A stretch of 64,000 bases of DNA from a virus. Its lineage: Duplodnaviria > Caudoviricetes. Below the pieces are notes generated by a model. It had not been told where the DNA came from. It made no database searches and saw only the letters and a program-made list of their open reading frames with translations. A program made the position numbers and the translations under genes. Within the stretch, counting starts at the first letter, position 1, and every line of letters begins with the position of its first letter. The stretch is taken from positions 29,687-93,686 of the IMG/VR virus record IMGVR_UViG_2706795940_000001. One strand, written 5' to 3'. This document shows, one piece after another, positions 24,740 to 41,978 of this stretch.

Positions 24740-25145
24740 ACTCTTCGTTTCCGGGACCGTACTTGACGTCCGATATGAACGTTCTGATCAAGTCGTCCAG
24801 AACTTTTCGCTGTCTCGACGTTAGGACTTCAGATCCCGTGGGCGGGGTGTACGGGGGAGCGGTTGCGTCCCAGGATTCCCCGAGCCATTCGGTCACCTTC
24901 TTCAGGGGGACAGACAAGGCCTCTGCGACCCTCTCTAAGGTCTGCCGCTCAACGAGTCGTGGATCCGCACGGCCTGTGATCAGCCGGACTACCGTTGTGG
25001 TGTGTAGCCCAGCCTCTTTAGCCAAGGCGTTATAGCTAGGCTCACCAGTCCTGGGATTGGTTAACCCTTGCTTCAACATGGCCTTGTGCCACGGCTGCGG
25101 TACCTCGTTGTTTCTCTGCATGACACTGATCAGTGTCTCATGCAC
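24720..25145 (-). CDS. Immunity repressor-like HTH protein
   Basis: SYNALAKEAGLHTTTVVRLITG HTH; next to int, divergent from the early lytic operon. Confidence 0.75.
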   Translation of the reverse strand: MHETLISVMQRNNEVPQPWHKAMLKQGLTNPRTGEPSYNALAKEAGLHTTTVVRLITGRADPRLVERQTLERVAEALSVPLKKVTEWLGESWDATAPPYTPPTGSEVLTSRQRKVLDDLIRTFISDVKYGPGNEESNPRLT

Positions 25146-25232
25146 ACCTGGACGCGGTCAACAGATGTGTCACACGTTCGCACTATACTAATGGACGACG
25201 CAACACTAGACATCACTTAGGAGTGCATTAGC

Positions 25233-25466
25233 GTGTCTTCGCCACAATTGGCCATAGGAGCAGAAGCTACGATCGGTAGCTGGGGTTATCGCTGGACGGT
25301 TATGGGATTCAAGATCCCCGGGCCGGCCTCCAGAGAGACAAAGGCGATCATCGCCCGCGAGGATTCGCGGCGATTTCCCACCGACGGCTTTGTCGGAAAT
25401 GGTCGTGCTCGACCACTAATCCGGACCCGGGTTCGTTCTTCCCTTCTTCAGTCGGCCGGCAAGTGA
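25233..25466 (+). CDS. Hypothetical protein, first rightward early gene
   Basis: RBS AGGAG; coupled to recE. Confidence 0.5.
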   Translation: MSSPQLAIGAEATIGSWGYRWTVMGFKIPGPASRETKAIIAREDSRRFPTDGFVGNGRARPLIRTRVRSSLLQSAGK

Positions 25467-26506
25467 TGACGGCAGAAACGCCCAACGACATTCTCACCCA
25501 GGGCGCCGTAATCAATGGTCGGGCGCAGGTTGTCGGCAAATTCGCCAACGGCTCCCCAGAGTGGCACGCTGCCCGTCGTGGTCATCTGGGCGGCTCGGAA
25601 ATCTCGGCCGTCGTGCGCCTGTCGCCCTTCGAGTCGCGGTTCTCGTTGTGGCACCGCAAGAAGGGTGAACTCGAAGACATCGAAGAGACGCCGGCCATGG
25701 AGTGGGGAACACGCCTTGAGCCGGTTGTCTATGACAAATATGCCGAATCGATCGACCCGGATGAGTACATCACGACGGGTCACACCTTCCGATGCTTGAT
25801 CCCTGGCCGCGGCTGGATGAACGCAAATCCCGACGGGATTGTGTGGGGTCGCAACAAAGAGACCGGCGAGTGGTTCATCAAGCGAATCCTTGAGATCAAG
25901 ACCAGCGCGCGTGGCGAAGGCTACGGGCCTAATGGGTCCGACGGCATCCCGATCTACTACCGGTGCCAGGTGCTGTTCTACATGTACGTTCTTGGCGTCA
26001 AGCAGGCCGAGTTGGCGGCGCTGATCTCTGGCGTCGACTATCGCACCTACCCGGTCAAGTACAACACCGAGGACGTCAATTTCCTCACCGAGGCCGGCGA
26101 CCAGTTCATGGCCGAGTTGCGCGACGACATCACCCCCAGCATCAGTGACGACATCGCCTCCTACGAGGCGGTGCGCGAGCTCAACCCTGAGCTGGACCCA
26201 GACCTCGAGGTGACGGTTCCGATCGCCCTGGGGGAGCGGTACCGGTCCATCGAAGAGGCCTATCGCGAGATCAAGGACATGCGCCACGGCGTACACGCCG
26301 AGATCCTCGAGCACGCCGGCGCTGCGCGACTCATCAAGATGGACGACGACGAGGTCATCGCTCGGCGCCAGATGCCGGGACGCGGCAGCGTGCCGTACCT
26401 CCGCTACATCCCTCCGGAGAAGGAGCCCAAGGTCAGCGTCGTTGAGGCGCACCAGGATGCGCTCGACACGGCGGATCGGCGCGCGGCGATGTACCCATCT
26501 GTCTAA
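25463..26506 (+). CDS. recE: RecE/YqaJ-like exonuclease
   Basis: EWHAARRGHLGGSE, ANPDG, LEIKT, YRCQV..YM motifs. Confidence 0.9.
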   Translation: MMTAETPNDILTQGAVINGRAQVVGKFANGSPEWHAARRGHLGGSEISAVVRLSPFESRFSLWHRKKGELEDIEETPAMEWGTRLEPVVYDKYAESIDPDEYITTGHTFRCLIPGRGWMNANPDGIVWGRNKETGEWFIKRILEIKTSARGEGYGPNGSDGIPIYYRCQVLFYMYVLGVKQAELAALISGVDYRTYPVKYNTEDVNFLTEAGDQFMAELRDDITPSISDDIASYEAVRELNPELDPDLEVTVPIALGERYRSIEEAYREIKDMRHGVHAEILEHAGAARLIKMDDDEVIARRQMPGRGSVPYLRYIPPEKEPKVSVVEAHQDALDTADRRAAMYPSV

Positions 26507-26513
26507 TGTCTAG

Positions 26514-26542
26514 TTGACTCCTGCATAGACATGACGTACTGT
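26514..26542 (+). promoter_or_regulatory. SigA-type promoter
   Basis: TTGACT-17 bp-TACTGT, overlapped by TGTCTA/TAGACA motifs. Confidence 0.75.
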
Positions 26543-26548
26543 GAAGGA

Positions 26549-26830
26549 GTCGGCAAGAGGGAAGTGAGAAACTCTCTAATCCCTACTGAGACACAGGACT
26601 TGCGACGCCGGCGTCAAGCTCGCCCCTGCTGAAGTTTGAGATGGGTCCTCAGTAGGGGAGGTAAGGAGCCCCAGCAGGGAACAACCCTGGCGCCAAGACG
26701 GGGCCCTGCTTGCGGTGCCGTTCCTTTCGGGCACTGCTCGAAGGCTCCTGCGCCGGCGTCGCCCCACACCTCCAGATGAGCACCGAGTGCCGCGGAGCGG
26801 ATTCAACAATCAACTCAAAGTTGATAGTTC
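26549..26830 (+). ncRNA. Candidate structured non-coding RNA or long leader
   Basis: About 310 nt without a credible ORF after the promoter; several 7-12 bp complementary segments. Confidence 0.55.
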
Positions 26831-26862
26831 ACAACAAATGAGAGACAAGGGGATTCAATACA

Positions 26863-27665
26863 ATGTCACGTAAATCCATGCAGGCAGACATCGACACCCT
26901 CTACGCATGGCTGGACCAGCAGAGCGCCTCGGTCGGCGCCGCGATCGAGGCTGTGGGGGAGATCAACAAGGTGCTCAGCAATCCGCCGGCAATCGGCGTC
27001 CACGAGTTCGTCGCGCCATGGCAGATCAAGATGGAGCTGCTCAACATCTACAAGGGCGACGTCGATGCAGCGCGGAGCGCCTTCGACTGGCTGGAGGAGG
27101 GTGCCGAGAAGGTGACGGTCGCCACCGAGGAGGTGCCGGCGTGATCATCAAGCCGCCAGCCATGGCCCACCCGTTCCAGCTCGCCGCCCTCCCGAACACC
27201 GGCCCCGAGGACCCCTACGGCTGCGTCATGAACGTCGTCAGCTGGATGAAGGGCGACACCGACATCACGGGGGAGCCGGACTGCGTCAACCACCACCTGA
27301 TCAACCTGTGCCAGACCTTCAACGACGAGGTTCTCGATCGCTTCGGCAGCCACGAGCGTGAGTATCCAGAGATGCTGCGCCTGGTTGGTGTTGCCTCGGC
27401 ACAGCAGTCCATGCGCCTCCTCGAGATCGCCGAACTCGTCACCGACACCGCGGTCGTCACCCAGGGGGAGAGCCGGGAGTGGGCTTTCCGGAAGCTGCGA
27501 TCGCCGCTCGGAATCTACGGAGCGCACAGCGTATCCCGACAGATCGCCACCAGTGCATCGAGCTTCGACGACGCGGTCGATCAGATCCTCGACATCATCC
27601 ACGACTTCCGATCCACCTTCGCCGAGGAACTCGGCCTCAACCAGCTCGAGGAGACCCGTGTCTGA
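26863..27665 (+). CDS. Two hypothetical genes (26863-27144, 27141-27665)
   Basis: RBS and GTGA coupling. Confidence 0.6.
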
Positions 27666-28383
27666 ACTGCAGCAAGCCGCTCAGGGACAGCAGTCCAACA
27701 ACCCAGTCAGCTTCATCTACAGCCACGCCAAGGACATTCAGAACGTCCTCACCAAGGGCACGGACATGGACCGGTGGCTGCAGATGGCACGGCTGGCCGT
27801 GATGCGCGACCAGAATCTCGTCGCGTCGGCCAAGCGCGACCCAGGATCGCTGATGCAGGCCCTGCTCGACTGCGCAGAGAAGGGCCACGTCCCAGGCACC
27901 GAGGACTACTACCTCGTGCCACGCAAGGGCGGCATCCAGGGCATGGAGTCCTGGAAGGGTATCGCCAAACGAATCATGCGATCCGGTCGATACCAGTCGA
28001 TCGTCAACGAGGTTGTGTACGAGGGCGAGACCTTCGAGTTCAACCCGAACACGATGGATCGCCCGGTACACAACATCAACTACATGACCCGGACCTCTGG
28101 CAAGCCGGTCATGTCCTACGCCTACGCCCTCGACCACGACGGGAAGCCATCTTCGGTGGCCATCGCGGACCCCCGGTACATCGCCAAGGTCAAGAAGAAC
28201 TCGCGCGGATCCGTCTGGGAAGACTGGGACGAGCAGATGTACCGCAAGACCGCGGTCAAGATGCTCCAGGACTACGTCGACACCTCGTCGGTCGACCGTC
28301 GCGATGTGTCTACCGTACAGGTAGACGATGCAAACGTGATCGATGTCGACGACACCTTCACGGCGCGGGAGGCCGGCGAATGA
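27658..28383 (+). CDS. recT: RecT-like ssDNA annealing protein
   Basis: SLMQALLDCA..G, YYLVP, VVYEGETF, W..W.EQMYRKTAVK. Confidence 0.9.
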   Translation: MSELQQAAQGQQSNNPVSFIYSHAKDIQNVLTKGTDMDRWLQMARLAVMRDQNLVASAKRDPGSLMQALLDCAEKGHVPGTEDYYLVPRKGGIQGMESWKGIAKRIMRSGRYQSIVNEVVYEGETFEFNPNTMDRPVHNINYMTRTSGKPVMSYAYALDHDGKPSSVAIADPRYIAKVKKNSRGSVWEDWDEQMYRKTAVKMLQDYVDTSSVDRRDVSTVQVDDANVIDVDDTFTAREAGE

Positions 28384-29084
28384 GCGGCGACATCAAGTTC
28401 CGATCCGACATGCGCGTCGAGCTCGTCGACTGGATGGGTGAGGATCAGCGCGTCGTCGAGGCGGCGAAGGTCTCAACGCTGGGCGATCGATCCCGCGGGG
28501 TCGAGGCGACTGAGGGCTTCATCGACTTCCTTGACCGGAACCGACACGGATCGCCGTTCGAGCACTCCGTCTTCACCTTCCTGGTCGAGTGCCCCATATT
28601 CGTTTCGCGTGAGTTCATGCGCCACCGAATCGCCTCGTACAACGAGGAATCCGGTCGATACAAGGTCATGAAGGGCGTGTTCTACGTCCCGGCCGACGAC
28701 CGGCCGCTGGTCCAGGTGGGCAAGCCGGGTGAGTATCGATTCGAGGCCGGGACGCTCGAGCAGCACGAGCTGGTGACAGACCTGTTCCAGCTCGCCGCCG
28801 ATACCGGCTACAACCTCTACCAGACCATGCTCGACGCCGGCATTGCCCGGGAAGTTGCGCGCGACGTCCTGCCGTTCCAGCTGTACACCTCGTTCTACGT
28901 CACCATGAACGCGCGCGGCCTGATGAACTTCCTCAGCCTTCGCGTCGGCGATGAGACAGCGGCCTACCCGAGCACGCCGCTGTACGAGATCGACCTGGTG
29001 GCACGGCAAATGGAGAAGCACTTCGCAGAGAAGATGCCGATGACGCACAAGTCATTCGTGCAGAACGGCCGGGTGGCGCCGTGA
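28380..29084 (+). CDS. thyX: Flavin-dependent thymidylate synthase
   Basis: HGSPFEH, REFMRHRIASYNEESGRY, REVARDVLP. Confidence 0.96.
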   Translation: MSGDIKFRSDMRVELVDWMGEDQRVVEAAKVSTLGDRSRGVEATEGFIDFLDRNRHGSPFEHSVFTFLVECPIFVSREFMRHRIASYNEESGRYKVMKGVFYVPADDRPLVQVGKPGEYRFEAGTLEQHELVTDLFQLAADTGYNLYQTMLDAGIAREVARDVLPFQLYTSFYVTMNARGLMNFLSLRVGDETAAYPSTPLYEIDLVARQMEKHFAEKMPMTHKSFVQNGRVAP

Positions 29085-31024
29085 CCGCGTATGCGCAGCT
29101 GAACCATCCCGAGGTCCGTGTCGACGGCAACTATGTCGTCCCGTTCAACGACCTCATCGGTCTGATCCCCGCGGAGGTGTCCGCCGGCATGGATCTTCAG
29201 GTCCGAGTGCCGCGGAGCGGACTGCGTGGACTCGGACGGGTCTTCGAAATCGACTATTACGCACGACAACTGACCATTGACGTGGAATGGATAAACGTGG
29301 AGGTAAAAGCATGAGGACGGAAGCGGACAAGGTCGCGGTGGAGGAGTTTGACGTACGTCGCCGGCGGACCATGTCGGACCTCCAAGAGGCGCTTGACCTC
29401 CTGGGAAGCTCAGCCATTCGGCACGCGGAAGGTCACTACCGAGACACCGTACGCCTCGAAGCTCTGGTGGATCAGGCGCTCGAGATCCTGGGCGAGAAGA
29501 ACGACGGCCGGCTGCTCGACGGCATCCGCCGACTCATCGCCGAGCGAGACGAGGCGCGTCAGGCGAAGCTCGAATCCGAGCAGCGAGCCGGGTTCGCGGA
29601 GGCGTGCTGCGGGTGCGACAACGGCGGCGAGCATGTGCTGCCGACCCCTTCCCCGATCAAGCCAGAGCACTGGCGATTCGCTGCCGAGCTGATCCGCAAG
29701 TCCGGCCAGATCGGTTCGTGGACTGCAGACAACCTCGAGTGGCAGGCACAGGGCATGGAGGCCGAGCTAGCCGAGGCAGAGCGGATCCAGGACGAAGCCA
29801 TCGAATCAGCTATCACCGCGTACTTCAAGGCGGCGCACGGTTGCCAACCGAAGACCGTGTACCCGCACGTTCGCACCGGCATGGAGGCCGCACTGCGCGC
29901 GGCGTCGAAGGTGGGCGAGAATGCCTGAGATCACCATCTACGGGGCATCCGACGACCTGGTTGAGGTCGAAGGTGCTGTGCGCGACGAGTTCAATCTTGG
30001 GCGCGATGGCACCCGCCTGCGACTGAGAGCACCGGACGGACTGCAGTTGGACGTTGCAGCAGACTTTTGCAACCCGGTCGTCGGCGGGCGACTCGACTGG
30101 GTGATCGGTGTGTATGCGGTCAACGCGTACCCGTCGTGGGGGATCCGATTCCACGAGCGCCCGGGCTGCGAAGGCGATCCGGCGGTCACCATCGAAGTGC
30201 CCGAGGGGACGACCGTCGAGGAGGTGAAGTATGACTGAGCCTGAGATCTCCGAGGGGGAACGAGAGGGCGCCCGCGATCTTCTCGAGGCGCTACGCGCGT
30301 CGTTGAAGGTCAACGTCACGGGTGCGCAGACCGAAGCTCCCCGAGGTCACATCCTGACCGTCACGAAGTGCGAAGACTTCGACCCCGAATACCCGAGCTT
30401 CGACTGGTCGATCGAATGCCAGAACGTGGACAAGTGCGGCGGCTGGCAGGAGTGCCACGAACTGCACGAGATCAGTGGCGCGTCTGCGGCGGACGGACCG
30501 TGGGACTGCGACGAGAACGCGCCGTGGGAAGGAATGGACGAGTTCGAGTTCCACGGCGTGCTGCACACGTGGCACTGGGGGCACGGGTGGACCGTGCCCT
30601 ACCGCGGGTGTGTGGTAGCGGGCAACGACTGGATCTGCGATTACGCGCACGACATCGCCCTCGATCACGGGTGTGGCCGGCACGAAGTCGAGGACGACTG
30701 GGATGACATGGACTGCTATCTGATTCACGTTCGGGCCCTCGCAAGCAGTGAACCGGAATCGTGACCAACCACGCCGCGATCGAGCTGGACGCGGCGAGAC
30801 TGTACCGCCAGATCCAGCACAAGGTGTTCGATGACCCCTGGCCCGACCTGCCCGATTTCATCCGGTGCAGGATGCGTGAGATCGCACAGGAGTGCCGTGA
30901 CGCACTCCTCGGTGGACACCACCGAATCTACAGCGACTACAGCGAATTCATGGATTACCGATCCGGTGTCTGCGCTGAGTGCTGCACCCCCTACCCCTGT
31001 GACATGAGGAGATTCTTTCAATGA
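29081..31024 (+). CDS. Run of five hypothetical genes (29081-29314, 29311-29928, 29921-30238, 30231-30764, 30761-31024)
   Basis: Coupled ORFs. Confidence 0.55.
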
Positions 31025-31221
31025 CTGGACCATCCCTGCCAAAGCTGTCCTACGGCAAGCGCGAACTCGCCGACGCCGTGGGAGTGAGCGAGGCAACCAT
31101 CGACCGTGAGATCAAGGCCGGCCGCATCGAGGTCCGCTACATCCGCAACAAGGTCGTCATCATGCACGAGGAAGCGGTGCGCTACCTCAACGACGCCCCC
31201 ACTGAGCGGGAGGACGTCTGA
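31021..31221 (+). CDS. Excisionase-like small HTH protein
   Basis: ELADAVGVSEATIDREIKAGRI, 66 aa. Confidence 0.65.
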   Translation: MTGPSLPKLSYGKRELADAVGVSEATIDREIKAGRIEVRYIRNKVVIMHEEAVRYLNDAPTEREDV

Positions 31222-31891
31222 TGACCCCCGCGGAGCACTACAAAGAGGCGATTCGACTACTGGGCGAGTCGGAGAGGGTGACGAAGGACGCTCATCGGCA
31301 GCGCGCGGAGATCGACGTCCTGAATCCGGTGGACAATGCTCGCCTTCGGGGGACCATCAACCGCGCCGAGCAGCTGCAGAGGAAGGCGCAGACTCACGCC
31401 CTACTTTCAATCGCTGCAGCCGGCCTGCCGCTCACCGTGCTCATCGACAACGATGACACTGCGGAGGACTGATCAATGTCCACGATCATCACCGACCGTG
31501 TTGTCACCACCAGCGTCCAGTTGGAATGCGACAGTGGAACCCTCAAGCTGTCAGATCTTCAACGATTCGTCGACGAGTGCGAGGACGAGGCAATCCCTGG
31601 GTTCTCCGAGGTCACCGTCGGCCGAGAGTGTACGTGGATCCGGGCCCAGTTCACGTCCGGGGACTGACTTGCCAAGCCGCGGGTAACTGTCTAATGTCTA
31701 ACCCAACATGTGAGTTCGCCCACCTCTTCGGCGCCTGTAACGCCCCAGCGAGCCACTTAGTCACCTACCGCTGGTGGGGCCAAATGCTCCTCTGTGACCA
31801 GCACTTCCAGGAAATGAACGTCAGCACCGACAAGCACGTACTCGAGACTCTCGCGGTCGACGCGAGCACCGAGTACCGCGCAGCGGACTGA
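31221..31891 (+). CDS. Three small hypothetical genes (31221-31472, 31476-31667, 31694-31891)
   Basis: Coupled ORFs. Confidence 0.5.
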
Positions 31892-31922
31892 CAAACACAC
31901 CATACAAGAGGGGAGCACTGAA

Positions 31923-33059
31923 TTGACTACGCAAACCCAGGAAACCAAATACGGGGTCAGATTGAGCGGACTTCGGGAAGCACACAACATGACGGCCGAG
32001 GAAGCCTCGGCACGCATGGGGTGGGAGCCATCGAAGTGGGGCCAGATCGAAAGCAGCCAAGGCGATTTCATCGAACACACCCAAGACATGGTTGCCGTCG
32101 CCCGGGACTTCGGTGTCGACGAGGCCTACCTCCGACCGAAGCTGCCGAAGCGTTGGATGGTCAACACCAAGCATGGCAAGCCCATCACCATCGTGAAGCG
32201 ACTGAACGCGTTGCGTGACGCCGGCTGGACCGAGTCGGACATCGCCGAGGCGACTTACATGCCCCTCGACCAGCTGCGAGACGTGCGCCACCGCGTAGAG
32301 ACCCTGGCACTGAACCACAACATGAACCGGTCCGCCAGCACGAAGAACATCGAGGCCGAACTGGTCATCCGATTCCTCGAGAACACCCCAGACATCTCGA
32401 CCCACGACGCCGACGAGCTGGTCCCCGCAACGTCAGTCCGGGCCCACATGCTCGCGCTCGAGGACGTCGGGTACAGCCGGTTGACCTACACCCACCGCGG
32501 GCCCGACCGTGACGGGATCTTCCTGCAGATGGTCTCGTTCAATCATCACGTGGCGCAGGCATTGTCGAAGCCCAACGCCGACCACATCCTCGTGCGCAAC
32601 GACATCGCGCAGGAGGTGCTGTCGCTGCCCACGGACGTGAACGCGCACATCCCGAGCTCCCTCGGCGCCACCCGTCGGGCCCAGGCCCTTGTCGCATGGG
32701 GGTACGACCCATCCCAGATCCGACGCGAGGCTGGACTCACCGCGGACCAGCTGCACCGCATCCTGTGGACCGACTGCAGCGCGCCCCTGGATCGCAATGA
32801 TGGCGTGAATCTTGTCCGCACATTCAGCAAACTCGAACACATTCCCGGCCGTAGCAAGAATTCGATCGACCTCGCCAAAAAGAATGGCTGGCCGCTTCCG
32901 TTCCAGTGGGATGAATACACAATCGACCGTGCGCAGACAAAGCCGTGCAAGGGTCGAGAAATCGTCAACACGATTGACTTGGACAATATGGAGCGTCGGA
33001 CCGAAGTTCTGAACAAAGAGTTCGAAGAACTCCTCCAGACCCTAGACAAGGTGGCGTAA
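31923..33059 (+). CDS. Multi-HTH DNA-binding protein
   Basis: N-terminal XRE-like HTH; GATRRAQALVAWGY and GWPLPFQWDE motifs of actinophage HTH proteins. Confidence 0.7.
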   Translation: MTTQTQETKYGVRLSGLREAHNMTAEEASARMGWEPSKWGQIESSQGDFIEHTQDMVAVARDFGVDEAYLRPKLPKRWMVNTKHGKPITIVKRLNALRDAGWTESDIAEATYMPLDQLRDVRHRVETLALNHNMNRSASTKNIEAELVIRFLENTPDISTHDADELVPATSVRAHMLALEDVGYSRLTYTHRGPDRDGIFLQMVSFNHHVAQALSKPNADHILVRNDIAQEVLSLPTDVNAHIPSSLGATRRAQALVAWGYDPSQIRREAGLTADQLHRILWTDCSAPLDRNDGVNLVRTFSKLEHIPGRSKNSIDLAKKNGWPLPFQWDEYTIDRAQTKPCKGREIVNTIDLDNMERRTEVLNKEFEELLQTLDKVA

Positions 33060-34049
33060 GTGCCACGCATTCGGGCCATTAAGCCAGAATTCTGGGCATC
33101 ACCGAACCACCCTGCAGATCCGTGGGCGCGGCTGCTGTTCGTGGCCATGTGGAACTGGGCCGACGACGCCGGAACCGGTACCGCCAACGCTCGGGAGCTA
33201 CTCGGATTCGCCTTCCCGAACGACGAGAACATCGACACGACGGACATCAAGCGGATGTTCACCGCGGTTGCTGACTCCTACGGTGTCGTCTTCTACAAGG
33301 TGGCTGGGCGGGACTACTTTCACGTCCCCACGTTCAACGATCACCAGAAGTTTGACCGCCGGCGCGGCGGTCGGCACCCGCTCCCTGCGGACGCCGAGGA
33401 GCTCTTGTACGGCAGTTTGTTGCAAGTTACAACCAAATCGGAAAGTTTGTTGCAAGTTACAACCAATTTTCCGGCTCGTGACCCAGAAACCGACCCTGAC
33501 CTGCATCAGAGCATCGATACGGCGCGCTGCGCCGACGAGTCGGCGCAAAAACAGCGCCGGAACAGGGGAACAGGGGAACAGGGGAACAGGGGAACAGGGG
33601 AACAGGGGAACGAAAAAGCGGAAGATCCTGACGGATCTTCATCCTCGGCAGTCGCTGTCGCGACGACCGAGCCCGCTCGCGACGAACCGGGGTTCCGGGA
33701 TGACGTGGATCGGCTCTGCGAGCGCTTGGCCGAGCGCGTCCGGCAGAATGCCGTCACGTCCAAGCCGGTCGTGATCCGGAAGGACTGGAGACGAGCGGCA
33801 AGGTGTCTAATCGACAACGATGGGGTAGACTACGACCGGGTTGTCCGAGTCCTCGACTGGTCACAAGCTGATCCGTTCTGGACCGCGAATATCCGATCGA
33901 TGCCGAAACTGCGTGAGAAGTTCGAAACTCTCGAAATGCAAATGAACCGGAATTCTCGTAGATCGAATGCCTCAATGGATTCGACACATCGAGGACTCGC
34001 GGATATGCAACGGATATTCGGAAATGCCGACCAGAAAGCAATTCAGTGA
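33060..34049 (+). CDS. Replication initiator (RepA/DnaT-like HTH)
   Basis: MPRIRAIKPEFW, ARLLFVAMWNWADDAG, FWTANIRSMPKLREKFETL; internal DNA repeats. Confidence 0.8.
   Translation: MPRIRAIKPEFWASPNHPADPWARLLFVAMWNWADDAGTGTANARELLGFAFPNDENIDTTDIKRMFTAVADSYGVVFYKVAGRDYFHVPTFNDHQKFDRRRGGRHPLPADAEELLYGSLLQVTTKSESLLQVTTNFPARDPETDPDLHQSIDTARCADESAQKQRRNRGTGEQGNRGTGEQGNEKAEDPDGSSSSAVAVATTEPARDEPGFRDDVDRLCERLAERVRQNAVTSKPVVIRKDWRRAARCLIDNDGVDYDRVVRVLDWSQADPFWTANIRSMPKLREKFETLEMQMNRNSRRSNASMDSTHRGLADMQRIFGNADQKAIQ
33414..33466. repeat. 23-bp direct repeat x2 (iteron-like)
   Basis: AGTTTGTTGCAAGTTACAACCAA at 33414 and 33444. Confidence 0.9.
33561..33611. repeat. 8-bp tandem repeat AACAGGGG x6
   Basis: Read directly; 48 bp keeps the reading frame. 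Confidence 0.95.
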
Positions 34050-34917
34050 AGAATACGAATGACACATACGCAATTGCGGTGTCTGTTCTGACGAAAGCTT
34101 CGATGCTCGATTCCAGGATCACCCTCCCCGCGGGAAAAGAAGAACGTGAATTCAAATACCAGGCGTGGGCGTCGGTGTTCACCCACGCCGGCGGCATGTG
34201 GCTCACCGAGTCGCTCGCGGCCGTCGACAACCACTACCGAGATGGCAAGTTCGCGATGATGCCGGCCGACGTCGTTGGCTACGTCCACGCGTTGCCGATG
34301 GACTCCTCGCCCGAGCGACTCAGGCAGTGGATCCTCGAGCAGGGTCGCCATCCGTACGCCCAGAACGTCCAGACGATGTCCGGCTTGGAGTTCAACCAGT
34401 CCGGCGATCCCGAGCAGGCGAAGGCCGAGTACCAGCAGTGGCTGGCCGAGAACATCGAAGAACTCACGTTCCGCATCTTCGGCCGGTGGTCCGAGGGTGT
34501 CGCGAAGATCAAGGGTCAGCCCGTCCGGAGTTCCATGCTCGACCCGTACGGCCTCGCCGGCGTCCTGAAGGTGGAGGCCTGATGTTCACGACCGACGAGC
34601 GTCCGTGGGACTCGCCCGGGCTCCCGGCAGGCGAGCGCTGCAGGTGGCATCGAGGCCTTTGCGCGTACCACGAAGCCGATCCGGCGAGGTGCACCTACTG
34701 CCATGCACAGCCCTCGACATGCGAGTGCTCCAGCCTCCACCCCGTTTTGTCGCTGGAAACCGCTCTGTCGGCCATACAGGCGGCAAAGAGCGGGACTCCA
34801 GCGAAGGGACTGAGGGAGCAATTCTCGATTTCGAACGGGGTGGCCGTCGGACTGGTCCGGCGAGCTGTGGCCAAGAAGAGCTCAGACAACGAACAAACCG
34901 AAAAACAGGAGAACTGA
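34046..34917 (+). CDS. Two hypothetical genes (34046-34582, possible initiator partner; 34582-34917, Cys-rich)
   Basis: Coupled to the rep gene. Confidence 0.5.
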
Positions 34918-34920
34918 CGG

Positions 34921-35259
34921 ATGGACTTCGACGACTATCAGGATGCGACCGCCGCCACCGCCATCTACCCAGGCGCCGGCACCGGGTCGATGGCCGCGCT
35001 GGCCTACATCGAACTCGGCCTCGGCGAGGCTGGCGAGATCCAGGGCAAGCTCAAGAAGATCCTTCGCGACGACGAAGGGGTGATCACCGCCGAGAAGCGC
35101 AACGAGCTCGCGAAAGAGCTCGGCGACCTCCAGTGGTACGTCGCGCGTCTGTCGGATGAACTCGGCCTCGCGCTCAGTGCGGTCGCCCGGGGCAACCTCG
35201 ACAAGCTGGCCTCCCGCAAGGACCGCGGCGTGCTGCAGGGGAGCGGGGATAACCGGTGA
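34921..35259 (+). CDS. MazG-like nucleotide pyrophosphohydrolase
   Basis: GEAGEI..K.KK..RD, KELGDLQWY, NLDKL.SR..RG.L.GSGDNR. Confidence 0.92.
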   Translation: MDFDDYQDATAATAIYPGAGTGSMAALAYIELGLGEAGEIQGKLKKILRDDEGVITAEKRNELAKELGDLQWYVARLSDELGLALSAVARGNLDKLASRKDRGVLQGSGDNR

Positions 35260-36947
35260 GGATCGATCCGCAGCAGAAAAGGCTGCAGGACGCCCTGGAT
35301 GCCGAAGACGACAAGCGGTGGGAGTTGCGTCTCGCCAAACTCATGCTTGGCGTGTCGGTTCTAGCCACCGTCGCCGTGATCGCCGCATGGGTCCTCTTGA
35401 TCCGCTGGGGCATCGACGGGATGGGTGAAGAGGGCGTTGACAAGGGAGGACCGGTCGCCGCCGGCATCTGGGGACTCGTCCTCCTGTCCGTCGGCGCAGC
35501 TACCGCAGTTGCTTTCGCGGCGCTCCACTGGCACGACCAGCGGATTTCCTTCATGAAGGCAAAACGGTACGCGCGCAACGTTTCCTTGGGGGTGGTGTGA
35601 TGACAGACCTCAAGGTTCAGCACCTGCTGGACGGAATCGATGACGCCAAGGACGAGGTCCGGGTGAAACGCAGGTTCATGCGAATCCTGATCTCCCTAGC
35701 ACTGTTGAGCTGGGCCTCGGTTGTCATCGGATTCTTCATCAGTCATGTGGGCATCAGCGTAACCATGGTGATCGTGGGCTTCATTGCGGGGCTGCTCTTC
35801 TCGGGATTCTCCTCGTTTGCATGGGCTGACTATCGAGACAGCCTCCCCAAGATTCGCCAGGCCGAGCGCGCGCACCGAGATCACCTCATCCGGGAAGGGC
35901 ACCTGTGAGAACGTACAAGATGCCCGAGCCGCCCGAGGGTATGCGCTGGAAGATCGCGAAGTCGTTTTGCGGCCTCGATGGCTACGTCCACGTCAAGCTG
36001 CAGGAGCGATGGCTTGGCATTTGGTGGACGTTGGACTACGGCGTTGCTTGCCTCGACGGAACGCCCGAGCAGAACGCGGACAACTGTCAGTACGCCGCCG
36101 AGTTCACACTCAAGCAATTCCAGCGCAAGATGCGGATGACCAACAAGCTCGACGTGAACGGGCTCGAGGGCGCCGTCCGCGGCCGTGGAATCGTGGGTTC
36201 CAGTGAGTAACATGCCGAATCGACCATCGGTCACCTTCTACGACCTGTACTCACGGCATGAGGTGACGGCCGGCGAGATCCACGACTTCATCGAGTTTTG
36301 GCATCACGAGTACGAGGGTGACCTCGAGCTGCGTGAATACCTCGGCATGACCCGGAATCAGTACTCGTACTGGGTCAGTCACAACGAACTCGTGCCCGCG
36401 GCGCTCGCCGACTGGTGGGAGCGACTCCTGCAGATGGATCGCGACCGAGCGACAATCAAGCAGCAGAAGAGGTCCGAGCGCGCCGGGAGGCGATGGCGAT
36501 GGTTGCCACGGATGTGATGTAGTGTCTACTATCTAACGCAACAGACAACAGACGAGATGAGGAGGGTTGATGACTGCACAGGGTATGACCATCTACGAGC
36601 CGTTCACACTGGGTCGGCTGATCAAGAACTTGCGGGATCTGCCGCCGGACACGAAGGTTCGCGGGCTGGATGGGATCGTCCACTCGTACCGGGGTTGGTA
36701 TGAGCGCAACGCCACGACCCCGACCGGCCTGGTCAACACTGCCGGCGACTTGGCTGACTTCTACCAGTCTGACATCGGCGAGACGATGGGGGGCTGGAAG
36801 GGCGGCGACTACATCATCTCGGCCGACGAGCTCATCTACTACGCCGACTATGGCGACTCCGGTCCACTCATCATCGGACTCGAGCCGACCGAAGACGACG
36901 GCACCTACACCCCCGTACTCCTCGCCGACCGCCACTACCTTCTCTAG
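35256..36947 (+). CDS. Two membrane proteins (35256-35600, 35597-35908) and three hypothetical genes (35905-36210, about 36203-36517, 36567-36947)
   Basis: TM segments; coupled ORFs. Confidence 0.55.
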
Positions 36948-36963
36948 AAACGGAGCATCAAAC

Positions 36964-37368
36964 ATGAAGCCATTCAAGAAGTTTGCAGCAGCAGCCGTCG
37001 CACTCGCGGCCGGCGCCACCATCCTCACCGCATGTGACGGCCAGAACGAGGCCGACGTCGTCTCGGAGAACATCGCGACCGCCGCGGACAACTTCGAGAT
37101 CAACCGACGCATCGTGATCATCAACAACCAGGCGCCTGAGGCCGAGCGGGTCATCCAGCTCATCGAAGGCTGGTGCAACGCCGAGATCGACCCGGACGTC
37201 ATCCGCACCACCTGCCGAGTGCCCGGTGGCTACCACAAGCACATCAACGGCCGAAACGCCCACACCACGTTCTCCGTCCAGCAGCTCGACGCCGCCCGGG
37301 TCTCGAAGGACCACTACCGCGTGGTCTACAACCCGTCCACCATCATCCCGGACATCGAGATCCGATGA
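36964..37368 (+). CDS. Lipoprotein
   Basis: Signal peptide MKPFKK...LTAC lipobox; ADNFEINRRIV motif. Confidence 0.75.
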   Translation: MKPFKKFAAAAVALAAGATILTACDGQNEADVVSENIATAADNFEINRRIVIINNQAPEAERVIQLIEGWCNAEIDPDVIRTTCRVPGGYHKHINGRNAHTTFSVQQLDAARVSKDHYRVVYNPSTIIPDIEIR

Positions 37369-38455
37369 GGGTCCGGTCGATAGAACTCGCCGAGAACGGA
37401 TTCCCCGAGCAGGTCACGGTCGTGATGTCCCGCTCTGAGGCCGAGTGGATCACTCTGGTCCTCGGCAGCCTGACCGGCGAGCAGGAAGAAGCGATCAAAC
37501 CTGGTTACCGGGAGCAAAGCGGCGAGATCTACAACGCCCTGGTCGGCGAACTCTTCAACCGCTTCTGGGAAGACGGGATCAATGACGCGGTGCGGGGGAG
37601 GGATCGCCGGTAATGAGTGACACCCCAGCACCCGCAGAGATCGTGGACAGGGTCCTCGACACCATGACGACCCTCTACGACGCCGACGCGGACCGCGTCA
37701 TCGCTGCTCTGTCTGAGCACTACCACCTACTGCCCCGGGTGGAGTCGCACCCGATGCGCGTTGGGCTGATTGACATGGCACCGGAGGACGAGATGTTCCC
37801 TGGTGACGACCCGGTGCTCACGGTTCGCTTTTCCGCGGGCATTCCACAACCCGGTCGGCTGTTCGGCCTTGACGAGCTGGCCGCGGCACTGATGGCTGCG
37901 CATTCTTCGGGGGTGTCGAATGTCTGACATCCCAAATCCCGAGGCCCAAGCTCGACTCGACCTCGCCGAACTTCAGCGAACGTTCGTCGTCATGGATGCC
38001 GCCAAGGTAATCCTCGACAGTCTGAACCAGATGCAGGACGACAATCATGCGCAGATCAAGCGCGTGTTTCCCGACAGCAACCCGAAGTTCGTCGACTACT
38101 CGGTGGAGTCTTGGACTGCCGCCGCAGCCCTCGACCGGGCCGGGATGCTGAAGGCAGCGGAGTGATCCCTTACGAATACTTCCTCGGTGTCGCAACAGTC
38201 TTCGTTGTTGTTTACATCGGGGTCGGTATCTACGGAACTATCGACATCGTCCGCCACGGACGTCCGTCGAGGGTGTACTTCAGCCCCGACCAGTACAGGC
38301 CCCTGCGGTATCGGGCGTGGGGGTTCTGGCCGCTCACGTTCATCACCCCACTGTTGTGGCCGCTGACACTCCTGGTGGTCGGCCTGGACAGGCAGTGGAC
38401 GAATCGGCAGATCGCCAAGCGAATCAAGAAGCGCAACGCAGGAGGTACAGAATGA
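37365..38455 (+). CDS. Four small genes (37365-37613, 37613-37927, 37920-38165, 38162-38455 membrane)
   Basis: Coupled ORFs. Confidence 0.5.
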
Positions 38456-39219
38456 GCATTTTCAGTCGCAACACCCGCACCGCGGACATCGCACCCACCG
38501 GACGCGGGCCGGTCAAGCTGGTCAAGGAGTCCGGGCCGGCGAACGACCGGTCGGCGATCGAGTCGTCTGGCGCCGGCATCGACCTCGTGAAGCGTTTCGA
38601 CAAGGCTGGTATCAGTCTGTCTAAACGTGGTCTGGACGGTGTACGGGCCGAGGCGGTCATGCTGCTCGACCACTCGGGCTCAATGTCGTACGACTACGAG
38701 AACGGCACGGTGCAGGCCATCGTGGAGCGCGCACTCGGGTTCGCCCTGCAGATCGACGGAGACGGAACCGTCCCGGTCATCCGGTTCGACTCGGGCGTCC
38801 GCAAGGCAATCGACGTGAACCTGAGCAACTACGCCAGCATCACGTCGTCCAAGCTCTACGAGCGCAACAAGATGGGCACGACGAACCTGACCGCTGCGCT
38901 CGAGGAACTGAAGTCGATTGGCCAGCAAGCCACCTCGCCCATCTTCGCGATCATCGTCACCGATGGTGCGCCGAACGACCCGACGTCAGCCGAGCGACTG
39001 GTCCGCGAGCTCGAGTCGCTCCCGGTGTTCCTCAAGTTCCTGTCGATCCAGCCGGTCGCCTGGCTGGACAAGCTCGACGACATGAGCCGGCAGCTGATCG
39101 ACAACGCGGATGCGAAGGCGATCGACGGCACCGAGTCGGACCTGCAGTTCGCCGACAAGATGACTGACGAATGGGACACCTGGATCGCCGCGGCCCAGCA
39201 GAAGGGCATCTTGGCGTGA
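38452..39219 (+). CDS. vWA domain protein (TerF-associated vWA type)
   Basis: MIDAS DHSGSM, T, VTDG; R.IDNA motif; N-terminal VKLVK/IDLVK/ISLSK repeats. Confidence 0.85.
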   Translation: MSIFSRNTRTADIAPTGRGPVKLVKESGPANDRSAIESSGAGIDLVKRFDKAGISLSKRGLDGVRAEAVMLLDHSGSMSYDYENGTVQAIVERALGFALQIDGDGTVPVIRFDSGVRKAIDVNLSNYASITSSKLYERNKMGTTNLTAALEELKSIGQQATSPIFAIIVTDGAPNDPTSAERLVRELESLPVFLKFLSIQPVAWLDKLDDMSRQLIDNADAKAIDGTESDLQFADKMTDEWDTWIAAAQQKGILA

Positions 39220-39593
39220 AGAAGATCCTGGTCACAGGCACCCGCACCTGGACCGACCGGGAGACCATCCACACCGTGCTCGCGCGCGCTGCCGGCTATC
39301 TCGGCGGTGCGTACGACCGAACCGCGGTACTCCTGATCGAAGGGGAGTGCCCGGACGGTGGTGCGGACATCATCGCCCGCGACATCTGGTGGTCCCAGGG
39401 TCGACCAGTCCTCGGCGTCCCAGCGAATTGGGAGGCCCTCGGTAAGCGCGCCGGTCCGGAGCGCAACCAGCGCATGGTCGACATGATGCCCGACGTGTGC
39501 GTCGCGTTCCTACAGCCAGGTTCGCGCGGGACCGTCGACTGTGTGGCCCGGGCACGCGCGGCCGGCATCTTCGTGAAAGAGGTCTGGGGCTAG
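39216..39593 (+). CDS. SLOG family (DUF2493/YspA-like) protein
   Basis: ILVTGTR, GGAD, ANW..LGKRAGPERNQRM, SRGT. Confidence 0.85.
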   Translation: MKKILVTGTRTWTDRETIHTVLARAAGYLGGAYDRTAVLLIEGECPDGGADIIARDIWWSQGRPVLGVPANWEALGKRAGPERNQRMVDMMPDVCVAFLQPGSRGTVDCVARARAAGIFVKEVWG

Positions 39594-40346
39594 TGGCCCG
39601 CACAAACTCCTGGGCCGAAGTGGGGAAGTGCATCCTATGCCGCCTCGACGACGGCGTGGTCTGCACCCAGTGCGTCGAGGACATCAAACAACTCATCGAA
39701 TGGGGATGGCAGTGAGCAGGGAATTCAAGGTCGGCGACCAGATTCGGTTCGCCCCAAGCCGTGGTGACGGTCGACGCTGGTGGATCGTGCGTGCACTCAA
39801 CGATCGCTACATGGTCGCCACGCGCCAGGCTGCGTTCGAGCCGAAGGGTGTCCTCGTCTACACCGTCGTCGACCTCGTGGGGTGGCGCTACACCTACAAC
39901 GGCGCAGGTCCGGGCATGGTGCGCTCGAGTCTCAACACCCTCGGTGGGGGCTGGGAGATCGGGCCCGACGGCGAGGGGTGTCAGGACATCATCACTGCGC
40001 TCGAGATCGGCGAGTTCGAGCTGTCGAACCGCCGCGTTGTCGACGTGCAGTCGATCGAGCGAAGGCCACGGAAGTGAGCGCCGCGAAGCGCCAGTACGCC
40101 CACGAAACCTGGCTCAGCGAGCGGGACCAACTCGCCTACGACTTCAACCCGTCACCGCTTTCTGAGGGCTGGGAGCTGTACGAGCACTGGCAGATCGACG
40201 AGGACGGAAAGCCGTACCTGTGCGTGGTCACAAGCTCCGTCTATGACGTCGGCGACCTCGATCCGGGGGACTTTATCCTGCGCCGCCGGTGGGGCGCTGC
40301 AGGCGTACCGGAGATCGTCAATCATGCTCGACCAGCAGGAGAATGA
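39593..40346 (+). CDS. Three hypothetical genes (39593-39715, 39712-40077, 40074-40346)
   Basis: Coupled ORFs. Confidence 0.5.
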
Positions 40347-41978
40347 GTGAACCAGACGGCGTATGACCGTGTCATCGATGCCTTTCGACAGTACGGGTCC
40401 ATCGTCGAGGAGAAGTCCAATGGCGTAGCGAGCGTTCAGGCCCCCGGTCACTCGGGGGCCGATCGTTCGGTGTCGGTCACCGCCATCGAAGGTCAGGTGC
40501 TCGTCCACTGCTTCTCTGAGCCAACCGAGGAGATCCTCGACAAGATCGGCCTCACGGTGGCGGATCTGTTCGACAACCCCAAGGGTGTCGACTATCGGTA
40601 CGACGACGGCCGGGTTGTTCATCGATCCACCGATAAGAAGTTCTTCCAGCAGGGGAACACCGGTGGCTCCAAGCTCTACCGGGCGTCGAAATTGGGTGAA
40701 TCCGAGGAAATCTGGTTCGCCGAGGGGGAGAAGGATGTCCACGCCCTCGAGCGCCTCGGCCTGGTAGCCACCACCAACGCCGGCGGTGCGGCGAACATCA
40801 AGAACTTCGACCTCACCCCACTGCACGGCAAGCGACTGGTCATCATTCGCGATGACGATGAGGCCGGCATGAAGCATGCCAACGCCCTGTGGTCTGCCCT
40901 CTCGCAAGACGTGCGTTCGATCCGGGTCGTCACCAGCGCCGCGGGCAAGGATGCTGCAGACCATGTTGCCGCACAGCTCGGTGTCGACGACTTCATTGTT
41001 GATGAGTCGTTCGCGAGCCGTGTGGTGCAGCGCGAACTCTGGCAGACCTGGAAGGACAACAAGGACGCCGAACCGGACGTCTTCCTGGCCGTCCTCGAGA
41101 AGGAGATCCGGCGCCTTCGACCACCGCAAGACCTGGCGCAGATGCACAGCTGGGACAACGCGCTCACGAAGTGGTTCGAGTGGTACGAAGCGCCAGAGTC
41201 TGAACGACGGGTCATTCCAACACCGTGGCCCAAGCTCAACCAGGTACTGGCCGGCGGATTCCACGCCGGCCGGTCGTATCTTGTCGTTGCACGACCAGGT
41301 GTGGGTAAGTCTCTCGTGCTTGGCAATGGTGCCTTGTTCGCGGCCATGGAAGCGTGGCAGCAGACCGCCCTGTTCTCTCTCGAGATGGGCCACGTCGAGA
41401 TCGTGTCCCGAATGCTCGCCGCCGGCGGTGACGCCAACTATGGACAGATCACCAAGCGCGAGATCGACGATTTCAACTTCGAGCGGATCTCCCAGTTCTT
41501 CAACCGATCCGCCGGCATGCCGCTCATGATCGGCGACACCCCGAACCTCAACATCGACAAGGCATTCTCCTACGTCGATACCCTCGCCAACCGTGACGAG
41601 GGGCTCGACATCGCGTTCTTCGACTACGCCCAGCTAATCAAGGGGCGCGCAGGACAAAGCACCACAGAGGCCAACGAAGAGGTCTCGCGCGGCCTCAAGG
41701 TGATGTCTCGCACGTACAACATTCCGGTCGTCTCCGCGGCCCAGGCCAACCGTGAGGGCGTCAAAGACGGTGGCGCACCGAAGATGCAGAACATCCGAGG
41801 TGCCGGTGCGTACGAGCAAGATGCCGACGTAATCATCATCCTCGACCTCGAGACTGAGCCGGCGCCACCGCACATGCCCACCGGAATGATCGACTTCATC
41901 GTGACGAAGAACCGCACCGGACCGCAGCAGACCATCTCCATGCAGTGGCGCCCGAACCGCGCGAAAATCACGGAGTAG
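40347..41978 (+). CDS. DNA primase (TOPRIM)-DnaB helicase fusion
   Basis: EGEKD, DDDEAG, KDAAD; ARPGVGKS, SLEM, DYAQL, AQANR, EQDAD, KNRTG. Confidence 0.93.
   Translation: MNQTAYDRVIDAFRQYGSIVEEKSNGVASVQAPGHSGADRSVSVTAIEGQVLVHCFSEPTEEILDKIGLTVADLFDNPKGVDYRYDDGRVVHRSTDKKFFQQGNTGGSKLYRASKLGESEEIWFAEGEKDVHALERLGLVATTNAGGAANIKNFDLTPLHGKRLVIIRDDDEAGMKHANALWSALSQDVRSIRVVTSAAGKDAADHVAAQLGVDDFIVDESFASRVVQRELWQTWKDNKDAEPDVFLAVLEKEIRRLRPPQDLAQMHSWDNALTKWFEWYEAPESERRVIPTPWPKLNQVLAGGFHAGRSYLVVARPGVGKSLVLGNGALFAAMEAWQQTALFSLEMGHVEIVSRMLAAGGDANYGQITKREIDDFNFERISQFFNRSAGMPLMIGDTPNLNIDKAFSYVDTLANRDEGLDIAFFDYAQLIKGRAGQSTTEANEEVSRGLKVMSRTYNIPVVSAAQANREGVKDGGAPKMQNIRGAGAYEQDADVIIILDLETEPAPPHMPTGMIDFIVTKNRTGPQQTISMQWRPNRAKITE

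Follow-up and report, generated by a model that had tools for sequence, protein, structure and literature searches.

A conserved structured RNA between the recE and recT genes of CQ Gordonia phages

The gap that follows the recE gene in this Gordonia phage very probably carries a real plus-strand RNA structure, with a 168-nt core at positions 26598-26765 of the window (the whole 64,000-nt stretch of viral DNA that was analysed, to which positions refer unless another locus is named). The core was found in ten copies, and its helices are supported by covariation. It represents a new RNA family with a defined core and could be entered in Rfam. Actinobacteriophages have hardly been explored for structured RNAs, and the small number known so far, the Pleft RNAs, are abundant, toxic and unexplained. 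The coordinates of the features are collected in Table 1.

Table 1. Positions of the genes, signals and RNA elements at the locus
Feature	Position	Strand	Basis or remarks
RecE-like exonuclease gene	25463-26506	+	ORF list; stop codon 8 nt before the -35 box
Operator-like sites: direct TGTCTA (26500-05, 26507-12), inverted TAGACAT (26526-32)	26498-26532	+	Sequence
Gap after recE, 356 nt	26507-26862	+	Without a credible ORF
Sigma-A-type promoter: -35 TTGACT (26514-19), 17-nt spacer, -10 TACTGT (26537-42)	26514-26542	+	Conserved
Variable 5' leader segment, poorly conserved hairpin	26550-26597	+	RNAalifold
Conserved structured RNA core, 168 nt	26598-26765	+	Fold, covariance model, covariation
P1, closing helix, 13 bp, G+C-rich	26602-14/26750-62	+	GCGACGCCGGCG/CGCCGGCGTCGC
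P2 arm	26623-32/26649-58	+	CCCCTGCTGA (26623)/TCAGTAGGGG (26649)
P3	26664-70/26743-49	+	AGGAGCC/GGCTCCT; carries hairpins P4 and P5
P4	26673-79/26704-10; apex 26685-89/26699-703	+	CAGCAGGG with its partner at 26704
P5	26712-19/26730-37	+	GCGGTGCC/GGCACTGC
P5 apical loop GUUCCUUUCG with invariant CCUUUC	26720-26729	+	Comparison of copies
30-nt motif CAnATGAGnnCCGAGYRCCGCGnAGCGGAYT, copy 1	26773-26803 (core match 26783)	+	About 10 nt after P1
Ribosome-binding site AAGGGGA (26847-53) and ATG (26863), first gene of the transcription unit	26847-26865	+	Sequence; kept in relatives
93-aa protein (phrog_16364)	26863-27144	+	ORF list, PHROGs
174-aa protein	27141-27665	+	ORF list
RecT	27658-28383	+	Pfam RecT, E 4e-26
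30-nt motif, copy 2	29193-29223 (core match 29203-29220)	+	Pattern search
30-nt motif, copy 3	31859-31889 (core match 31869-31886)	+	Pattern search

Genomic context

Read in plus-strand order, the locus contains a tyrosine integrase, a leftward immunity repressor, a small cro-like ORF, the RecE-like exonuclease and then the gap of 356 nt, which is followed on the same strand by two small ORFs of 93 and 174 amino acids that separate the RNA element from recT, and by RecT and ThyX. The RecE-like gene of the window shares 94-99% identity with its counterparts in Abscondus, WilliamBoone and Culver, which carry the annotation RecE-like exonuclease, and these three phages share the same gene order and a gap of about 355-370 nt; the corresponding gap in the CQ2 phages OneUp and BrutonGaster is about 580 nt. 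The leader of BrutonGaster likewise precedes a homolog of the 93-aa protein (30% identical). More than 14 kb of plus-strand genes lie downstream of the promoter and the element, and searches of Pfam and PHROGs gave no function for the small proteins downstream of the leader. A reading made from the window's sequence alone (the sequence-only reading) had picked out the interval after recE as a large non-coding gap, and this holds: no credible ORF is present, and the relatives carry insertions and deletions across it.

Two annotations in the neighbourhood look like errors. Gene 89 of Abscondus (L001 3245-3769), the counterpart of the 174-aa protein, is annotated as 'tyrosine integrase', and gene 91 (L001 4484-4657), which encodes a 57-aa protein, as 'immunity repressor'. 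The window ortholog of gene 89 has no integrase match in Pfam and only a sub-threshold Dodecin hit.

The leader promoter

The promoter that had been proposed immediately upstream of the structured segment, TTGACT-17-TACTGT, is present and is kept as TTGACT-17-TAnnnT in all seven lineages. The -35 hexamer is invariant and the -10 hexamer retains its T, A and final T, with variation in the three inner bases (TACTGT, TAGTGT, TAGGCT and TACTCT among the seven lineages), which is the pattern of conservation expected for an actinobacterial sigma-A promoter. A generic E. coli-style promoter scan did not pick up TTGACT-17-TACTGT because TACTGT agrees with TATAAT at only three of six positions. Transcription is predicted from the promoter sequence to start near 26548-26550.

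Both direct copies of TGTCTA abut the -35 box, and the inverted TAGACAT lies inside the promoter spacer. The genome has 40 occurrences of TGTCTA/TAGACA where about 20 would be expected, frequently in the form TGTCTAATGnCTA, and the TGTCTAATGTCTA of the leader promoter recurs at 31688 (31688-31700). A phage regulator may use TGTCTA as an operator or as a stoperator-like site. As TGTCTA sites lie at the promoter, we infer that the leader promoter, an internal promoter of the early-right operon of the CQ phages, is probably regulated by a DNA-binding protein. A further copy of TGTCTA is found at 25207, in the repressor/cro intergenic region.

Architecture of the RNA core

The core starts about 55 nt downstream of the promoter and consists of two stacked three-way junctions closed by P1. 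Folded alone, it has a minimum free energy of -91.3 kcal/mol (z -4.0 against shuffled sequences), and the whole gap gives z scores against shuffles of -3.3 on the plus strand and -1.35 on the minus strand. The de novo and model-based folds of the core agree, and the covariance model R1 scores the core at 156 bits as its sole credible hit in the genome. A structured segment of about 280 nt had been described from the sequence; structure is indeed present, but the conserved unit is 168 nt long and lies inside a leader of about 315 nt. The segment that precedes it is variable: most substitutions among close relatives fall there, and its hairpin gives only a weak RNAalifold consensus (-2.4 kcal/mol for seven leaders). 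The 97-nt stretch from the core to the start codon has no significant structure (z -0.8).

The ten copies have the same order of parts. The 5' part comprises ACUUG, the 5' arm of P1, GUCAARC-C-R, CCC at the start of P2 and a variable P2 apex; the middle is GGGA-G-AAGG, which forms the 3' strand of P2, J2/3 and the start of P3; and the 3' part comprises variable P4 and P5 hairpins, GCUCGAM, the 3' arm of P3, a U and the 3' arm of P1. The junction sequences ACUUG, GUCAARC, GGGAnGnAAGG and GCUCGAM are invariant. The short flanks just outside P1 (ACUUG and CCACA) are conserved, and CACCUCC follows P1 in most genomes.

The apical loop of P5 contains CCUUUC, which is invariant in all seven promoter-distal copies on stems that covary but is missing from the promoter-proximal copies. 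In CQ1 phages and in copy 2 of the IMG/VR contig L099 (described below) it is carried by P5, and in copy 2 of OneUp and of BrutonGaster by a sub-arm of P2. The loop resembles the 3' tail of 16S rRNA.

Several of these helices had already been read from the sequence. The pairings GCGACGCCGGCG/CGCCGGCGTCGC, AGGAGCC/GGCTCCT and GCGGTGCC/GGCACTGC are exact, form part of the minimum-energy fold (as P1, P3 and P5) and show compensatory changes in relatives. Of the three alternative partners listed for CAGCAGGG, the one at 26704 forms the covarying helix P4; the other alternative pairings are not conserved. The 10-nt complementarity of CCCTACTGAG (26581) and CTCAGTAGGG (26648) is genuine in this genome, but the helix is lost in the nearest relatives. 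In the closest of these (X1/X2) its 5' arm is changed at 26582, 26584, 26589 and 26590, with a further change at 26580 just before it, and it is lost in Abscondus and Culver too. The helix competes with the conserved P2, and the sole change in its 3' arm (26653 T>C) turns a G.U pair of P2 into G-C. Since CCCTACTGAG/CTCAGTAGGG is not conserved, the proposal that crossing helices form a pseudoknot or mutually exclusive folds is without comparative support. A pairing of the 5' strand of P2 with the 5' strand of P4 was rejected, as it is not conserved.

Covariation, strand and non-coding status

The covariation analysis was carried out on a model-based alignment of the ten copies, comprising four single copies and three tandem pairs from seven lineages. 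In this alignment 95.5% of the cells pair and 10 of the 29 pairs are changed on both sides, and RNAalifold applied to the five CQ1-type copies with no structure supplied arrives at the same five helices, in which both partners differ in 11 of 52 pairs; as there are only seven lineages, these covariation counts in part reflect shared ancestry. None of 500 shuffles of the ten copies matches the observed paired fraction or covariation score, and sliding the structure by 1-3 columns lowers pairing to 36-50% and leaves no more than two covarying pairs. P1 occurs in three different sequences (GCGACGCCGGCG, GUGGUUGGUGGCG and GUGAUGGCGGCG), every one of which is paired, and the P3 pair at position 105:226 appears as A-U, G-C, G.U or U-A. 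The structural conservation in relatives on which the sequence-only reading had staked its case is therefore present, with covariation.

The helices contain 19 G.U cells and two A.C cells, which identifies the plus strand as the folded strand. C>T variants in further relatives (26609, 26719 and 26732) also yield G.U pairs. DNA contigs of four relatives, when compared with the window, showed many single-base insertions and deletions across the gap; these break every reading frame, and coding is thereby ruled out.

Against this evidence, an explanation without any RNA element has already been largely refuted, and we regard it as very improbable. The gap would then hold a DNA-level site (an origin, a recombination site or an array of protein-binding sites), a missed small gene or chance G+C-rich complementarity. 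Such an explanation could draw on the partly palindromic sequence of P1, on the operator-like TGTCTA sites that flank the promoter and on the minus-strand ORF that is annotated in the gap of BrutonGaster. However, compensatory changes in five helices together with the excess of G.U over A.C make sense only for a plus-strand RNA, the indels leave no frame intact, and neither the shuffle nor the slide controls come close to the values observed. The ORF in question, gene 72 of BrutonGaster (L005 2834-3103, minus strand), is annotated as a hypothetical protein inside the tandem RNA region; it is probably a spurious gene call, because the region has a covarying RNA fold and relatives carry frame-breaking indels. 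The element corrects existing annotations in this respect, as ORFs have been called inside it.

Copies and distribution

The ten copies comprise one in each of four CQ1 (Smoothievirus-type) genomes, including that of the window, and tandem pairs in the CQ2 phages OneUp and BrutonGaster and in the 5.9-kb IMG/VR contig IMGVR_UViG_3300012974_000357 (L099). Searches with R1 gave one copy in the genome of the window and two in that of OneUp. The tandem units are about 9 nt apart, with no expression platform between them. This natural contrast between single and tandem forms comes with a tractable host, Gordonia terrae 3612. The sequences suggest that the tandem state is ancestral and that the first unit was lost in CQ1.

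In L099 the pair lies on the minus strand (242-603), and the contig has a CQ-like recE with 78% protein identity. Its second unit is closely similar to the single copy of the CQ1 phages and its first unit has P1 and P3 sequences of its own.

Among phages the element appears to be confined to this group. A blastn search of 50,697 phage records gave matches in CQ phages only. R1 searches of the whole genomes of Yvonnetastic, JonJames, Bantam and Mollymur, the next-closest phages with a RecE homolog, found nothing convincing, and in these phages the next gene follows recE after 40-90 nt. Pattern scans of IMG/VR, screened with R1 or by script, yielded OneUp, BrutonGaster and IMGVR_UViG_3300012974_000357 as the only true homologs among the matches listed; no further member was found among the matches listed in a JGI metagenome pattern scan screened in the same way, and none among those listed in a pattern scan of a one-genome-per-species set of 185,579 bacterial and archaeal species. 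These scans demand exact core motifs, and divergent members could escape them. A set of 177-nt pattern matches was rejected as homologs, as these proved to be unrelated coding DNA. The range of the family may be somewhat wider than the copies found, although the element is clearly not widespread.

Relation to known RNA families

No hit to the element was obtained with the 4227 models of Rfam 15, which include riboswitches, ribozymes, 6C, 6S, SRP and Y-like RNAs, at E<=10 across 25000-28500 of the window, or at E<=5 at the OneUp, WilliamBoone and L099 loci. ARAGORN found no tRNA or tmRNA genes in 26300-27000, and a literature search found no paper that describes the element. A retron msr-msd RNA was rejected because the whole 93,686-bp genome has no match to RVT_1 (PF00078). 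By these tests the element is an uncatalogued RNA family, and the earlier description of an undescribed, promoter-driven structured RNA is borne out by the lack of an Rfam hit and the strong covariation. It is a new family of narrow range within a known category, that of phage promoter-proximal structured RNAs.

Self-cleaving ribozymes are common in phage operons, and the invariant junction nucleotides, the conserved flanks outside P1 and the tandem units would suit a self-cleaving ribozyme or a cassette for RNA processing, with cleavage of the polycistronic transcript at either of these flanks, ACUUG or CCACA. There is no match to any Rfam ribozyme family, however, and the junctions show no evident resemblance to the hammerhead, twister, hatchet and pistol cores, so that we consider an element of this type quite improbable.

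A new ligand-sensing aptamer, single or in tandem, that controls the downstream genes is also unlikely, although much of its outward form is present. The element combines conserved, covarying helices in a multi-helix junction with invariant unpaired bases, lies in a 5' UTR behind a promoter, and has ThyX and recombination genes downstream. Its occurrence in single and tandem 5' UTR forms, with a short linker between the tandem units and one shared downstream leader, is reminiscent of the glycine-class tandem riboswitches. The difficulty lies with the expression platform: the leader has no terminator and no Shine-Dalgarno-sequestering helix that overlaps or competes with P1, and neither is found between tandem units. 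P1, with its 13 G+C-rich base pairs, looks too stable to switch in the modelled fold, and the alternative pairings listed in the sequence-only reading are not conserved. Unlike the glycine class, the element has no Rfam match and no coherent metabolic regulon (the first genes downstream are without function by Pfam and PHROGs), and it is restricted to one phage group, being absent at the pattern level among the matches listed for the bacterial and archaeal species set. The suggestion of a riboswitch-like leader, which lacks a conserved switch and any terminator/antiterminator or sequestering platform, is accordingly not upheld as the best reading.

A possible cis-acting role in transcription of the operon

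HK022 putL/putR and Bacillus EAR are cis-acting processive antitermination RNAs; put is about 70 nt long, is made up of two stem-loops and is found behind both early promoters. The CQ element shares with put and EAR a structured RNA in a promoter-proximal or intra-operon position, a long operon, the lack of an expression platform and a narrow phylogenetic range. It could similarly be a leader domain that acts in cis by modifying RNA polymerase or protecting the mRNA, so that processive antitermination or stabilization would allow transcripts from this promoter to run through the long early operon. In favour of such a role, the element lies just behind the early-operon promoter at the same place in every genome, its structure is very stable, one or two copies are tolerated, and its distribution is narrow and phage-specific, as is that of put. 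OneUp and BrutonGaster also have, upstream of the second copy of a 30-nt motif (Table 1), a G+C hairpin of terminator-like form with UUCUC after it.

This role is somewhat less probable than the one preferred below. Against it, no canonical plus-strand intrinsic terminator was found in the approximately 14 kb from 26863 to 41246, a search that actinobacterial terminators without U-tracts would escape, and no intrinsic terminator was found on the plus strand downstream of the leader at the OneUp locus. The antitermination RNA proposed from the sequence would thus have no canonical terminator to overcome within that distance. R1 searches found no copy in the region of the other early promoter, which lies upstream of the cro-like gene, and the element follows a single promoter, unlike put. 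It is also far larger than put and unlike it in form, with a double three-way junction of 168 nt. Both the riboswitch and the antitermination readings are possible rivals, but neither is the best reading.

A proposed stable, partner-binding RNA module

The interpretation that we prefer, tentatively, is that the modelled fold represents an autonomous and stable RNA module that binds a partner. Transcription of the operon for the 93-aa and 174-aa proteins, RecT and ThyX would yield the domain at the promoter-proximal end of the transcript, and the domain would act as a self-contained module that resists nucleases, not as a sensor that switches through P1. It may persist as a stable RNA, possibly trimmed from the leader, and present the invariant junction and the pyrimidine-rich CCUUUC loop to a partner. 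This could be an RNA that is purine-rich and Shine-Dalgarno-like, or an RNA-binding protein of the host or of the phage.

A stable RNA is suggested by the length of the terminal helix, by the arrangement of the tandem form in units that each have a P1 of their own, and by the conservation of the short linkers. Different P1 sequences within an array would avoid cross-pairing between units, and the constancy of the CCUUUC loop while it changes arms gives it the look of a displayed recognition element. A discrete small RNA would require putative processing, as no terminator or defined 3' end follows the domain. The element is always found at one locus and at a fixed distance from the same gene start, with which a role in cis fits equally well. 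Sequestration of the downstream ribosome-binding site in cis by the CCUUUC loop was rejected, since the complementarity is no better than that of random 25-mers.

A partner-binding module is also favoured by precedent, because the cluster A mycobacteriophages L5, D29 and StarStuff make abundant, stable and unexplained non-coding RNAs from Pleft, behind an early promoter (PMC5712189). As in the CQ phages, these come from an actinobacteriophage and from a non-coding stretch of a few hundred bases without a conserved ORF that lies behind an early promoter and ahead of early genes. The likeness is one of position and description: the Pleft RNAs lie at the right end of the genome, whereas the CQ element lies between recE and recT, and abundance and stability are measured properties of the Pleft RNAs. 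The 6C sRNA and other sRNAs with C/U-rich loops from actinobacteria and firmicutes resemble the element in having a pyrimidine-rich apical loop, here CCUUUC, that is invariant on covarying stems. Unlike 6C, the CQ element has no Rfam hit, a much larger scaffold, no outstanding target pairing and promoter-proximal copies from which the loop is absent.

A more far-reaching possibility, which we judge improbable, is that the element belongs to a new phage-specific class of functional RNA, either a scaffold that mimics the 3' tail of 16S rRNA or else a new class of riboswitch or ribozyme. If the mimicry were true, the CCUUUC loop and the CACCUCC just 3' of P1 would capture either Shine-Dalgarno sequences or a ribosome-tail-binding factor or toxin, and host translation would be reprogrammed or defence evaded early in infection.

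A 30-nt motif downstream of the core

The window and five relatives each have exactly three copies of the 30-nt motif that follows P1, all of them on the plus strand; a reversed-pattern control gave none. The copies lie 25-150 nt upstream of the starts of the 93-aa ORF, a 213-aa ORF (29287) and an HTH protein (31923). The variable positions and differing reading frames of the motif argue for a nucleic-acid signal rather than a peptide; a small hairpin (CCGC-GNA-GCGG) and a protein site are both conceivable. A 77-aa ORF (phrog_15274, 29081-29314) holds the second copy in frame (RVPRSG); its status as a real gene is uncertain, because the corresponding motif is intergenic in the CQ2 phages. The region 31696-31925, which shares the flanking motifs, has no significant structure (z -1.5). 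About 180 nt ahead of the copy of the motif at 31869 there is a TGTCTAATGTCTA, like the one at the leader promoter.
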